Positions 5,365-31,814 of a DNA stretch of 64,000 nucleotides are shown in pieces. Origin of the DNA: an uncultured Pseudomonadota bacterium (GTDB lineage Bacteria > Pseudomonadota > Alphaproteobacteria > Rs-D84); the NCBI GenBank assembly GCA_949290785.1, contig CASETE010000011.1, forward strand, positions 5,893 to 69,892, in the 5' to 3' direction. The notes beneath the pieces were generated by a model, which searched no databases, had not been told where the DNA came from, and saw only the letters and a program-made list of their open reading frames with translations. The first letter of the stretch is position 1. Each line of letters starts with the position of its first letter. The translations under genes were made by a program, and so were the position numbers.

Positions 5365-6984
5365 TTATAACATTGTAATTGTGTCCAGTTTATCGGTATA
5401 TTTTTGAATTTCTGCATCAATATTTTTTATTTCATCGCCTGCTTTTTCATCGCCGGAAATAAATGCAGAAAATAACTCTTTCTTTTTTATATTCAGCGAT
5501 TCGAGATATTTTTGTATTTTTAATGAAACGATATATTTTTCGGCCGATTTTTCATCTAAATTCATATCTGATGCATCACCGTCAAAACCGACATTCAATG
5601 TTGCTAAAAATTCTGCATACCTTTCCGCCAGTTCTGGATATTTATTTATAATGAATATTAAAGTATTTTTAGTGATAGTGTCTATTTGTGGTAATTCTAT
5701 ATTTGTTTGTTTTGAATCTGATTTTTTCCATTTGTGCCAAGAATTGAATTTTCTGGAATTATATTCTTGTTCATATTCAGCGCGCAAAGAAACGTCGGTT
5801 ATTTTATCGGTTTTTTGCTTCAAGAATTTTTCTGCCTGTGCACGTCCGCCTGGCGTAGAGACTAAAAAAGATTCGTTAGTAAGTTTCCATAAAAAGTCAA
5901 CAAGTGGTGTTGCATTGTCTATTATTTTACGCATGGCATCGGCGCCAGATTTTTTTAGAATTTCATCTGGATCTTTACCGCCAGTAACAAAAGCAAATCG
6001 TACATCAGAATTATCGCGTAAAAACGGCATTACTATATCACATGCTCTACCCGCTGCTTTTTGTCCTGCATTATCACCGTCAAAGCAGAATATAATATTT
6101 CTATTTGATTTACATAAAATAGCAATGTGATCTTCTGTCAGTGCAGTACCAAGCGGGGCAACGGTTTCAGGAAAACCATTTGATTGCATTTGAATTGCAT
6201 CAATTTGCCCTTCTACAACGATACTTCTATTTGACCGATGAATTGCGTCGCGCGCAAAATTTAATCCAAAAATAGTTTTTCTTTTATGAAACATTTCGGT
6301 ATCTGATGTGTTTATATATTTTGGTTCAGAACCGTCCATACTACGCCCTGAAAACGCAACAACTTGTCCGTGTACGTTGAATATAGGAAACATTAATTTA
6401 TCACGGAAAAAGTCATATATGCCATAATCACCGCGCCTACATAAACCAGTAGATAATAATGTTTCTTGTTTTATGTTTACAAATTTATTGGCGATGAAAT
6501 TATTTTTAGGCGCATATCCTATACGATATTTTTTTATCATTTCATCAGAAAAACCGCGTCCGCGAATATATTCCAATGCACTTTGACCGTCACTTTCAAA
6601 TAATTTTTTTTGATAAATTTGTGTTGCTTGTTCTGTTATTTGAAAATAGTTTTCTTCCCTGGCAACTTGTTCTGCCGATTTCGGTTTATATTCAGGCATT
6701 TTTATACCTGCCTGATTTGCTAATTCTTTTAAAGCATCCACGAAGTCCATATTATTAGATTTCATGGTAAAAGAAATTATGTCACCGTGTTCACCGCATC
6801 CGAAACAATGATAAAATCCTTTTTCTTCGTTTACAGAAAAACTGGGTGTTTTTTCATTATGAAAAGGACAGCACCCCCAATAATTTTGACCTTTCTTAAC
6901 AAGCGGAACGCGGCGCCCTACTACATCAACGATAGATAAACGGGTTCTAAGTTCGTCTGTAAAATTACGGTCATATCCTGCCAT
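5365..6984 (-). CDS. dnaG: DNA primase DnaG
   Basis: Zinc-ribbon CCPFHNEKTPSFSV..CFGCGEHGD, TOPRIM region; 539 aa. Confidence 0.9.
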   Translation of the reverse strand: MAGYDRNFTDELRTRLSIVDVVGRRVPLVKKGQNYWGCCPFHNEKTPSFSVNEEKGFYHCFGCGEHGDIISFTMKSNNMDFVDALKELANQAGIKMPEYKPKSAEQVAREENYFQITEQATQIYQKKLFESDGQSALEYIRGRGFSDEMIKKYRIGYAPKNNFIANKFVNIKQETLLSTGLCRRGDYGIYDFFRDKLMFPIFNVHGQVVAFSGRSMDGSEPKYINTSDTEMFHKRKTIFGLNFARDAIHRSNRSIVVEGQIDAIQMQSNGFPETVAPLGTALTEDHIAILCKSNRNIIFCFDGDNAGQKAAGRACDIVMPFLRDNSDVRFAFVTGGKDPDEILKKSGADAMRKIIDNATPLVDFLWKLTNESFLVSTPGGRAQAEKFLKQKTDKITDVSLRAEYEQEYNSRKFNSWHKWKKSDSKQTNIELPQIDTITKNTLIFIINKYPELAERYAEFLATLNVGFDGDASDMNLDEKSAEKYIVSLKIQKYLESLNIKKKELFSAFISGDEKAGDEIKNIDAEIQKYTDKLDTITML

Positions 6985-30071: not shown

Positions 30072-30148
30072 TGGTGGGTGGTATTGGACTCGAACCAACG
30101 ACCTTTACGATGTCAACGTAACGCTCTAACCAACTGAGCTAACCACCC
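30072..30148 (-). tRNA. tRNA-Val (anticodon GAC)
   Basis: GGGTGGTTAGCTCAGTTGGTTAGAGCGTTACGTTGACATCGTAAAGGTCGTTGGTTCGAGTCCAATACCACCCACCA; perfect 7 bp acceptor stem; encoded CCA. Confidence 0.85.
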
Positions 30149-30162
30149 GATATTTTTCGGTG

Positions 30163-30237
30163 CTATGTCCAGAAAGCCAACGACCTTTACGATGTCAACG
30201 TACGCGGCTGACCAACTGAGCTAACCACCCGATAGAC
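30163..30237 (-). pseudogene. Truncated/degenerate duplicate of tRNA-Val(GAC): 5' acceptor strand, mutated D arm, anticodon arm, variable loop; no T arm or 3' acceptor
   Basis: About 52 nt nearly identical to positions 1-52 of the adjacent tRNA (..CCAACGACCTTTACGATGTCAACGTA..CCAACTGAGCTAACCACCCGA) with the D stem disrupted (CGCGGCTGACC for ACGCTCTAACC). Confidence 0.6.
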
Positions 30238-30308
30238 TTTAAACTTTCAGGATTATACCAAAGAAAAATACGATTGCAATATCAAAAAGCAGCATTTATA
30301 ATATATAC

Positions 30309-30483
30309 CGCAACAGGTGTTCTGTTGTTGGGCTTACAAACCCATTCAATCAGCGTCAGCGATGGCGAAAAATATCTCCAACTAATTGGTTGGAGTGGTC
30401 TGAATATATTGAATAAGACCGCAATTTCTGATTGAATTGTTTGTAAACTCCAACCACCTGAATTTTCCGGTGGTTTTTTGTTT
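30309..30483 (+). ncRNA. Structured sRNA, copy 1 (~175 nt), with own promoter TTGCAA-17-TATAAT (30274-30302) and terminator AACCACC-N10-GGTGGTT-T6
   Basis: Predicted helices: CAACAG/CUGUUG 5' hairpin; long-range UUACAAAC/GUUUGUAA; AUUCAAUCAG/CUGAUUGAAU; CUCCAAC-UAAUU-GGUUGGAG hairpin; GGUCU-(GAAUAUAUUGAAUAA)-AGACC hairpin; terminator. Confidence 0.5.
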
Positions 30484-30552
30484 AACGCAAGGGAGTAAAA
30501 AGCGCCAGAAAAAATAATTTGATATGTGATTTATGGGTGGTTATAATACATA

Positions 30553-30722
30553 CCGCAACAGGTGTTCTGTTGTTGGGCTTACAAACCTAGTGAACGCGCT
30601 TGGTTATCAGGCGAAAATCCAACCAATTGGTTGGAGTGTGCCGAATATATTGAATAAGGCACGCAATTCGTTCAATTGTTTGTAAACTCCAACCACCTGA
30701 ATTTTCCGGTGGTTTTTTGTTT
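30553..30722 (+). ncRNA. Structured sRNA, copy 2, promoter TTGATA-17-TATAAT (30519-30547), same terminator
   Basis: Same architecture as copy 1. The loop-closing stem changes GGUCU/AGACC to GUGCC/GGCAC (compensatory) with the identical loop GAAUAUAUUGAAUAA. Confidence 0.5.
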
Positions 30723-30791
30723 AACGTAAAGGAGTAAAAAGCACCAGAAAAAATAATTTGATATATGGTTTATGGGTGGATATAATATGTA

Positions 30792-30966
30792 CTGCAACAG
30801 GTGTTCTGTTGCTGGGATTCACAACCTATTGTCAAGCGTCCGCAGGGACGAAAAAAACTCCAACCCCTGGTTGGAGGGACTTTAAATATATTGAATAAAA
30901 GTCGCAATTCTTGACAATTGTTGTGAACCTCCAACCACCTGAAATTTCTGGTGGTTTTATTTTTGA
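30792..30966 (+). ncRNA. Structured sRNA, copy 3, promoter TTGATA-17-TATAAT (30758-30786), terminator CCACC-UGAAAUUUC-UGGUGG-U4AU5
   Basis: Long-range helix changes UUACAAAC/GUUUGUAA to UUCACAAC/GUUGUGAA (three compensatory pairs). Inner helix changes to UAUUGUCAAG/CUUGACAAU. Loop stem becomes GACUU/AAGUC. Confidence 0.5.
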
Positions 30967-30980
30967 ATATCGGGGGTAAA

Positions 30981-31169
30981 ATGACACTGGGTAATGAAAT
31001 AGAACAAATCCGACAAAAATGTAATATGCCGTTATTTATTGCATATTCTATATTTGATACCGATGAAAAAGGTTATCATCAAATTGTGATTGGTCGACAA
31101 AAACCCACAGTTTTTCAATTAATAATGTTTATTGATTCCACCCACCACCCAATGAAGTGTATAGAATAA
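30981..31169 (+). CDS. Small XRE/Cro-like helix-turn-helix protein (62 aa), tentative
   Basis: ATG 9 nt after RBS GGGGGTAAA, directly after the copy-3 terminator. LGNEIEQIRQKCNM...YHQIVIGRQKPTVFQLIMFIDS loosely fits the HTH_3 pattern (LG.rIr.lR...G...IS.IE.G.r.P....L.kIa.aL). Confidence 0.35.
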   Translation: MTLGNEIEQIRQKCNMPLFIAYSIFDTDEKGYHQIVIGRQKPTVFQLIMFIDSTHHPMKCIE

Positions 31170-31533: not shown

Positions 31534-31623
31534 ACATTGTTTTTCTAATATATTATCTTATTTGTCATTCCCGCGTCCGTGGGTCAAAAAACTAATGTTT
31601 TTATTGGGTGATAATGCGTGTTT

Positions 31624-31758
31624 TGTCATTCCCGCGCAGGCGGGAATATGGTCTATTAAATTTATATCGCAGATTTCAGATTAATGAAAAAAACATAGAT
31701 ATATATAATTAATTAAATAATTATTTTAGTCCCTATTCCCGCCTGCGCGGGAATGACA
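31624..31758. mobile_element. MITE-like element, 135 bp, with perfect 24 bp terminal inverted repeats TGTCATTCCCGCGCAGGCGGGAAT (each containing ATTCCC-N8-GGGAAT) flanking an 87 bp AT-rich core; a third degenerate half-site at 31562-31586
   Basis: Left repeat 31624-31647 is the exact reverse complement of right repeat 31735-31758. GC-rich palindromic ends in an AT-rich intergenic region between the GIY-YIG gene and mreB. Confidence 0.5.
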
Positions 31759-31814
31759 GATAGAGGGGAATTTTCAAAATATAATATATCTGTTTGCGGT
31801 AATAACAAATAATA

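Follow-up and report, generated by a model that had tools for sequence, protein, structure and literature searches.

Three tandem ~240-bp units at 30290-30965 of the window (the whole 64,000-nt stretch of DNA analysed here), each made up of a promoter, a structured RNA of ~170 nt and an intrinsic terminator, were found to belong to a large, well-supported cis-regulatory RNA family that is apparently undescribed. While the initial annotation had described the units as sRNA copies, they proved to be copies of a 5' leader, with a terminator 30-60 nt before a gene and a covarying antiterminator alternative. On balance, we favour the reading of the three 'sRNAs' as tandem duplicates of a transcription-attenuating, riboswitch-like leader, in which the loop of hairpin P5 forms part of the sensor.

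The units are arranged head-to-tail with a period of 239 bp (2.7 units, 80% identity), and each contains a separate promoter that agrees with the consensus at 10-11 of 12 positions (Table 1), the -10 box being conserved family-wide in alignment A2. Within a unit, a 5' hairpin, P1, is followed by a closing helix, P2a/P2, and an inner helix, X:X', placed around P3, P4 (CUCCAACY/GGUUGGAG) and P5. X' is flanked by a 4-bp helix, P6, and the unit ends in an intrinsic terminator of the form ACCACC...GGUGGU with a U-run. Minimum free energies of the units ranged from -63 to -68 kcal/mol. A Shine-Dalgarno sequence with an ORF was present only after copy 3. After copies 1 and 2, a Shine-Dalgarno sequence and ORF start are present in decayed form, indicating that the duplicated block ran from the promoter through the leader into the start of the ORF. 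The array is flanked by tRNA-Val(GAC), MetRS and QueH upstream, and by GIY-YIG and MreB downstream.

Table 1. Positions of the array features in the window.
Feature	Position	Strand	Details
Promoter, copy 1	30274..30302	+	TTGCAA-17-TATAAT; 10/12 consensus positions
Leader RNA, copy 1	30310..30479	+	Fold; model R1, 166 bits; covariation
5' parts, copy 1	P1 30310-30328; P2a/P2 5' strand 30330-30340; X 30344-30353; P3 30354-30367	+	
Middle parts, copy 1	P4 30376-30395; P5 30397-30420; P6/X' 30422-30439; P2 3' strand 30440-30446	+	
3' parts, copy 1	Pre-terminator repeat 30448-30455; terminator 30453-30479	+	
P4 hairpin, copy 1	30376..30395	+	CUCCAACU/GGUUGGAG; 3' arm alternatively pairs with 30448-30455
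P5 hairpin, copy 1	30397..30420	+	Loop GAAUAUAUUGAAUAA at 30402-30416
Pre-terminator repeat and overlapping terminator, copy 1	30448..30479	+	CUCCAACC at 30448-30455; ACCACC..GGUGGU and U-run at 30453-30479
Decayed Shine-Dalgarno and ORF start after copy 1	30483..30518	+	AGGGAGTAAAAAGC...; likewise after copy 2 at ~30722-30757
Promoter, copy 2	30519..30547	+	TTGATA-17-TATAAT; 11/12 consensus positions
Leader RNA, copy 2	30555..30718	+	Model R1, 153 bits
Parts, copy 2	P4 30618-30635; P5 30636-30664 (loop 30643-30657); pre-terminator repeat 30687-30694; terminator 30692-30718	+	
Promoter, copy 3	30758..30786	+	TTGATA-17-TATAAT; 11/12 consensus positions
Leader RNA, copy 3	30794..30964	+	Model R1, 171 bits
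Parts, copy 3	P4 30858-30876; P5 30878-30903 (loop 30884-30898); pre-terminator repeat 30929-30936; terminator 30933-30964	+	Loop AAAUAUAUUGAAUAA
Shine-Dalgarno and 62-aa ORF	30972..31169	+	GGGGG 30972-30976; ATG 30981, to 31169 with stop; weakly XRE/HTH-like; gene fronted by the array

The surroundings of the array hold further elements. Adjoining the tRNA-Val(GAC) gene (30072-30148) is a partial tRNA-Val duplicate of ~64 nt on the minus strand (30170-30233), which extends from the 5' end through the anticodon arm (GAC again), breaks within the T arm and received no ARAGORN call; it is kept in place in the relatives L001, L003 and L011, whose proteins are ~70% identical. The -35 region of the copy 1 promoter, the first and native one, overlaps a palindrome, ATTGCAAT (30273-30280), and in other MAGs (L014, L032, L036, L056, L103 and L112) TTGCAAAT-N3-ATTTG inverted repeats are found at the same place, at leaders before XRE-like genes. 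These palindromes and inverted repeats may be a candidate operator for autoregulation by the XRE-like protein, which would add control at the DNA level to that exerted by the leader. The sequence UUGAAUAU, situated past the last terminator and before the Shine-Dalgarno sequence of the XRE-like ORF, recurs in the window (30965-30980) and in L003 (~5983-5999); it has the same sense as the UUGAAUA of the loop and is conserved in two species. At ~31608-31770, between the GIY-YIG gene and mreB, inverted GTCATTCCCGCGCAGGCGGGAAT repeats surround an AT-rich core of ~100 nt, with weak, sub-threshold Rfam matches to Wolbachia WsnRNA46 (37 bits) and Francisella FtrB (35 bits). This element looks like a small palindromic or MITE-like repeat.

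P5 of copy 1 reads GGTCT-GAATATATTGAATA-AGACC, and the same loop, (G/A)AAUAUAUUGAAUAA, is placed on top of a different stem in each of the three copies (GGUCU/AGACC in copy 1, GUGUGCC/GGCACGC in copy 2 and GACUUU/AAAGUC in copy 3). All three stems pair, and the loop is unpaired in the minimum-free-energy fold of every copy. The 15-mer GAATATATTGAATAA of copy 1 is repeated exactly in copy 2 and with a single change in copy 3, its first G being replaced by A, which leaves AAUAUAUUGAAUA(A) as the strictly invariant block. When up to two mismatches were allowed, GAATATATTGAATAA had four matches in the window against 0.81 expected, and none of 100 shuffles reached four. The earlier observation of one loop on compensatorily different stems was thus confirmed, and its description as invariant holds in full between copies 1 and 2, with position 1 altered in copy 3.

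Homologues of the 62-aa protein encoded after copy 3 formed only seven clusters, which came exclusively from ENA metagenomes. The contigs concerned show synteny and bear one or two RNA copies, in which the loop is intact and P1/P2 are compensatorily changed. A scan of GTDB genomes with a pattern from which the loop had been deliberately omitted (TCCAACN{3,8}GGTTGGAGN{40,68}CTCCAACCACC) returned at least 120 loci. Among the matches listed, all but one were in ~75 gut MAGs labelled as Ca. Enterousia, Alphaproteobacteria or 'Rickettsiales', with up to five leader loci per MAG; the lone exception was a 2-kb contig that is probably mis-binned. A covariance model, R1, when applied to the first 99 sources, matched 143 times at E<=0.01, with ~25 of the matches devoid of the scan pattern, and in the 64-kb window it recovered the three copies and no others. 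The host lineage is the order Rs-D84/Ca. Enterousia group, which is uncultured and has genomes of <1 Mb. The window shares ~91% identity with two metagenome contigs and ~85% with the nearest GTDB MAG, and the number of leader copies differs between strains (1, 2, 3 or 5).

Searches against Rfam 15 with its T-box, riboswitch and alphaproteobacterial sRNA families (cmscan at E<=1 for 5 kb and at E<=10 for window 30285-30990) returned only chance matches far below the gathering score, such as SgrS with 17 bits against a gathering score of 37, and a literature search with literal sequences gave no description of the leader family. A phage or mobile origin was rejected, as blastn against a phage collection gave no family match and a scan of viral contigs with the family pattern gave 0 matches. 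Arrays of three to five leaders were also seen elsewhere (L094 3935-5083; L120 7016-7932; L097 6816-7629; L087 2267-4184; L105 1023-1709), and in L097, L087 and L105 adjacent copies use different P4/antiterminator arms, so that each copy carries an internally matched 'code'. In one metagenome copy, L009 1420-1597, the P2 5' half of one variant is joined to the 3' half of another, making P2 unpairable, and the loop carries a T to C change (GAATATATCGAATAA); this points to a recombinant or to a copy in decay, unless the assembly is chimeric. In L040 (~1745-1800), a truncated extra copy lies right after the terminator of a member and restarts at the P4 3' arm and P5 (GGTTGGAAGG-TGTCG-GAATATAACTGAATA-CGGCGC).

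The structure was assessed by covariation in the model alignment A3, which comprises 120 members and 45 modelled pairs. A standard pair was formed in 94.0% of cells, as compared with 75.5% in shuffled and 36-43% in slid alignments, and the covariation score was 0.485 against 0.142 (shuffled) and 0.035-0.081 (slid). Changes on both sides, that is compensatory ones, were present in 37 of the 45 pairs. All five pairs of the P5 stem showed them, in 4 to 48 sequences per pair among the 120 relatives and in 43-48 at the best two. X:X' is hypervariable yet complementary, with a mean run of 6.9 nt against 3.9 nt when shuffled, and P6 alternates between CAAU/AUUG and CUAU/AUAG (AU in 65 sequences, UA in 44). 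P6 and X:X' are either a pseudoknot or parts of alternative folds. A structured domain backed by covariation, as looked for in riboswitches, is present in these 5' leaders.

The loop itself is exactly GAAUAUAUUGAAUA in 52 of 120 members. In the 120 relatives, positions 1-5 (GAAUA) and 10-15 (GAAUAA or AAAUAA) are ~80-99% conserved, such invariant columns lying outside covariation testing, while positions 6-9 vary, so that only the two halves GAAUA...(G/A)AAUAA are conserved across the family. The central 4 nt may be UACA, CAUU, UGUU, UAUC or others; in ~9 members a whole hairpin is inserted between GAAUAA and AAAUAA, and shortened loops such as GAAUAUUGAAUA occur, with a minimal form, GAAUAAAUA, in one member. 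The proposal that the loop is a sequence-specific functional surface is supported by its constancy in more than 100 homologues whose stems drift compensatorily. Loss of the loop in other genomes had been named as one of two observations that would speak against this proposal; the comparison was made, and the two halves were kept in more than 100 homologues elsewhere.

The further claim of a contiguous 14-15-nt seed did not hold, as the centre between the two conserved halves is variable, replaceable by a hairpin and can shrink to GAAUAAAUA. Nor was the complement of the loop, suggested as its obvious target, found outside the family with one mismatch or fewer in the window and ~0.93 Mb of related loci, a 1-mismatch site at L064:757 being left aside, and complementary 9-12-mers in the window were at chance level, with no enrichment. 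The variable centre and the lack of complementary sites in these sequences argue against a linear seed, and the loop is probably not an antisense seed. Regarding a kissing loop, the third of the proposed roles beside seed and protein-binding loop, mutual information between the variable loop positions and all other columns was <=0.22 bit and revealed no credible partner inside the RNA. Weak pairing of AAUAU would be possible with the P1 loop GUGUU, which is not conserved. The evidence is more in favour of a structured surface at which a ligand, a protein or a tertiary dock would be recognised.

The P4 3' arm, GGUUGGAG, is complementary to the P4 5' arm and also to an identical segment, CUCCAACC, which overlaps the base of the terminator, so that the second partner of the arm abuts or overlaps the terminator stem. 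The three segments (P4 5' arm, P4 3' arm and pre-terminator segment) covary between copies; the invariance of P4 and the pre-terminator segment in most members is partly imposed by the scan pattern, and the three-way covariation rests on ~24 divergent members. Support for the antiterminator was therefore taken per sequence, the alignment-wide count being uninformative with most members sharing the arm that the pattern demands. Among members found without the scan pattern, 21 of 24 showed dual complementarity of the P4 3' arm over at least 7 nt, against 3.4 expected by shuffling, and the mutually exclusive terminator and antiterminator pairings known from riboswitches are thus found here as well. 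At least seven different P4 arm sequences occur, for example GUCAGGAG, GGGCAGGGG, UGGGACUGG and UGGAUUGG, and co-changing triplets in members without the scan pattern include CUCCUGAC/GUCAGGAG/CUCCUGAC, CCCCUGUC/GGCAGGGG/CCCCUGUCC and CCAGUUCC/GGGACUGG/CCAGUCCC. This copy-specific covariation of three segments rules out a shared trans partner and implies an intramolecular alternative.

When nested structures only were considered, the terminator fold was predicted to be ~15 kcal/mol more stable than the antiterminator fold, from which we infer that termination would be the default and read-through would be induced by a signal. This direction of the switch is drawn from nested-fold energies only, and a pseudoknotted antiterminator that keeps P2 could be nearly isoenergetic. 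Other known modes of attenuation were considered and rejected. T-box-like tRNA sensing, which had been prompted by the UGGU and ACCACC motifs, was discarded as these positions covary away and no T-box match was obtained, and a CsrA-type GGA motif in the P4 3' arm was discarded as it is absent from several variants. Attenuation by a leader peptide was likewise set aside: ORFs of 50-53 aa do overlap the RNAs, but they run across covarying stems and lack a visible Shine-Dalgarno sequence.

In most copies the terminator is located 30-60 nt before a gene on the same strand. An ORF in this orientation that has a Shine-Dalgarno sequence followed 127 of 145 units, its start mostly 31-60 nt past the pre-terminator segment, and the units devoid of such an ORF were mostly internal array copies. 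Among the products are ~20 distinct small XRE-like proteins (60-66 aa), bona fide XRE HTH proteins of ~114 aa (7 of 80 according to Pfam), seven Listeria-Bacteroides repeat proteins, an adhesin with a YadA anchor, OMP and Opacity porins, two DNA methylases, a glycine-rich protein, DUF262 proteins and many Cys-rich proteins with a signal peptide (secreted) and no Pfam match. The gene set is coherent as a surface/regulator regulon and not as a metabolic pathway, and no single metabolite is indicated. The 62-aa ORF of the window gave no match in Pfam; it aligned collinearly but weakly with the bona fide XRE proteins of the family by hhalign (E 4.4e-4, probability 34%), and its best PDB profile match (E 0.008) covered the N-terminal part of the chain. 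Its AlphaFold2 model was unusable (pLDDT 52), and this ORF is described here as weakly XRE-like from sequence comparison.

In the mechanism that we propose, P4 and the terminator would form in one state and yield the short RNA of ~170 nt, while in the other the P4 3' arm would pair with the pre-terminator segment as an antiterminator, allowing read-through into the gene. The P5 loop, which is located only 1-2 nt from the switching P4 3' arm, would offer its two halves, 5'-GAAUA / (G/A)AAUAA-3', as a bipartite motif whose centre is dispensable, and these halves probably zip up through non-canonical pairs (G.A, A-U, A.A, U-A and A.G) so as to extend P5. The loop may thus serve as the contact site for an effector, either a small ligand or a protein, or as a tertiary dock, and would bias the choice between P4 and the antiterminator. 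Upstream array copies without an ORF would give rise to the short terminated RNA only, and may add to dosage or titrate the effector. Against the leader reading, the downstream genes have no common metabolite, which is atypical for classical riboswitches, and a trans-acting or sponge RNA would also be consistent with the separate promoters and with array copies devoid of an ORF. In its most specific form, the leader could represent a new riboswitch class, in which a pseudoknotted sensor with a GAAUA/AAUAA pocket binds a gut-, host- or partner-derived small molecule or second messenger and switches on the surface/adhesin proteome together with mini XRE regulators, genome-wide, via the 'duplicated-arm' antiterminator; we put this forward as a tentative possibility.

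The effector could also be a protein, which is a sub-case of the leader reading. A trans RNA-binding protein, such as an antiterminator or termination factor, would read GAAUA/AAUAA, perhaps as a dimer given the pseudo-symmetry of the motif, with the ORF-less copies as sponges. The heterogeneous regulon would point to a global regulator more readily than to one metabolite, several MAGs have arrays in which 3-5 units are driven by strong promoters, and the loop halves are GAAUA direct repeats with a flexible spacer, as is common for protein sites. However, none of the loci is linked to a candidate protein, the RNA, in which more than 40 pairs covary and a pseudoknot is probable, exceeds in complexity what most protein-binding leaders require, and the host genomes are reduced (<1 Mb). 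We therefore regard a protein effector as conceivable but doubtful. Sibling trans-acting sRNAs, whose loop would act as a seed or kissing loop on UUAUUCAAUAUAUUC-like mRNA sites, would account for the promoter and Rho-independent terminator of each copy, for the missing ORF after copies 1 and 2, and for a conserved, single-stranded loop; a trans role has, moreover, been proposed for Brt1 of Bartonella besides its role in cis (PMC5387305). Such RNAs would be expected to have a contiguous conserved seed and complementary targets enriched near start codons, and neither was found: the centre of the presumed seed is variable, deletable and replaceable by a hairpin, and ~1 Mb searched (the window and ~0.93 Mb of related loci) held no complement with one mismatch or fewer outside the family, L064:757 aside, with window k-mers at chance. 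Most members are also 5' leaders of genes, and the three-way covariation indicates an intramolecular switch, which makes sibling sRNAs an unlikely explanation.

Another reading is a cassette without any sensing, that is a spreading promoter with a stabilising 5' structure and a leaky terminator that sets a fixed low expression, the loop being a processing or RNase site or a cap. While this would agree with the very diverse and often accessory-type genes that are fronted (methylases, DUF262 proteins and adhesins) and with copy numbers of 1, 2, 3 or 5 between strains, a fixed attenuator needs no second covarying partner for the P4 3' arm, and the junctions and the loop have been kept in ~75 MAGs while the stems drifted; we think it improbable. 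Finally, the loop contains a self-complementary palindrome, AATATATT, and XRE-like genes often follow the leaders, so that a DNA-level operator for the downstream XRE-like protein could be envisaged. However, only about half of the members have the palindrome intact, insertions split it, it is always presented on a covarying RNA stem, and the genes after most members are not XRE-like, leaving very little room for this explanation. An attenuating, riboswitch-like leader remains our preferred reading.

Transcriptional riboswitches with a terminator/antiterminator platform, such as the pbuE adenine ON switch and other pseudoknotted aptamers, share with the leader family a conserved, covarying, multi-helix and probably pseudoknotted 5' domain, exclusive pairings that overlap an intrinsic terminator, and junctions and loops that are conserved while stems vary. 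The family differs from them in that its gene context is not metabolic, no Rfam family matches, the units occur in tandem arrays with a promoter each, and switching falls to the arm of an internal hairpin, the partner of which is duplicated, and not to a strand of the aptamer closing helix. Protein-controlled attenuators and decoys are known from ANTAR/EutV with EutX, from CsrB/RsmZ-type sponges and from the titration of CsrA/RsmA by multi-copy sRNAs. The short loop motif present twice, the many leaders per genome and ORF-less copies able to titrate a factor are reminiscent of these systems; the motif, however, is unlike ANTAR hexaloops and GGA motifs, and the RNA is by far the more elaborate one. 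Tandem sibling sRNAs that act in trans, such as Qrr, PrrF, OmrA/B and LhrC, likewise come as near-identical copies with their own promoter and terminator and an invariant single-stranded stretch. In contrast, this stretch is bipartite and insertion-tolerant in the present family, targets were not found in ~1 Mb (L064:757 left aside), and the unit is mostly the leader of a gene.

The closest analogue is the Brt/Trp system of Bartonella, in which multi-copy (Brt1-9/Trp1-9), highly expressed, structured RNAs of ~190-200 nt with a 5' hairpin each carry a terminator immediately upstream of a poorly transcribed small XRE-type HTH gene (Tu et al. 2016/2017, MicrobiologyOpen, PMC5387305). Brt has been proposed to be a riboswitch-like attenuator, possibly also acting in trans, and has been linked to the YadA-type adhesin BadA; it was described as genus-specific, present only upstream of trp genes and clustered within ~15% of the B. 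henselae genome (PMC5387305). The leaders described here are also alphaproteobacterial and multi-copy, start with a 5' hairpin and, at ~170 nt, end in a terminator before an XRE-type gene, and they directly front XRE-like and adhesin/surface genes, including that of a YadA_anchor protein. The Brt architecture of a multi-copy ~200-nt RNA with a terminator directly upstream of an XRE-type HTH gene is thus found again, as a likeness of working only, and the present family differs in fronting many gene types.

Homology to Brt was not found on the partial, plasmid-borne copies that were compared, and Brt was kept as an analogue only. The Brt 5' region from Bartonella plasmids (GGUUGCGAGCGCCCUCGCAUUGGUAUUCCGGGAG...) is devoid of the GGUUGGAG/CUCCAACC and GAAUA..AAUAA signatures, and model R1 gave no match at E<=1 in the Brt-like plasmid loci L133 and L134, which hold partial Brt copies. 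Conversely, a Brt probe from the supplement of that paper (conserved 5' region UGCGAGCGCCCUCGCAUUGGUAUUCCGGG) was absent from the window family, and Brt gave no match in viral contigs. On the plasmids pTLV-1 and pBGR3 (L133 901-1030 and L134 901-1030), the conserved 5' part of Brt lies divergent from an HTH regulator and beside parA. By analogy, the window family would work like Brt and like transcriptional riboswitches, as a member of no described family.

If this reading is right, the window has led to a large and apparently undescribed family of structured regulatory RNAs in a gut lineage that is uncultured and genome-reduced; more than 140 examples are included, and 37 pairs covary. The family fronts the genes likeliest to be involved in contact with host or partner cells (adhesin-like and secreted Cys-rich proteins) together with small XRE-like regulators, and its presence in several copies in genomes of <1 Mb makes it a candidate for the master switch of a regulon. 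It offers a candidate orphan riboswitch or attenuator in which two copies of a helix arm compete for the same partner, and a parallel, unrelated in sequence, to the still unexplained Brt/Trp of Bartonella. The bipartite P5 loop is a precise target in the search for a ligand or protein. Should the riboswitch reading be true, a reduced genome would have a single RNA-based master switch of lifestyle.
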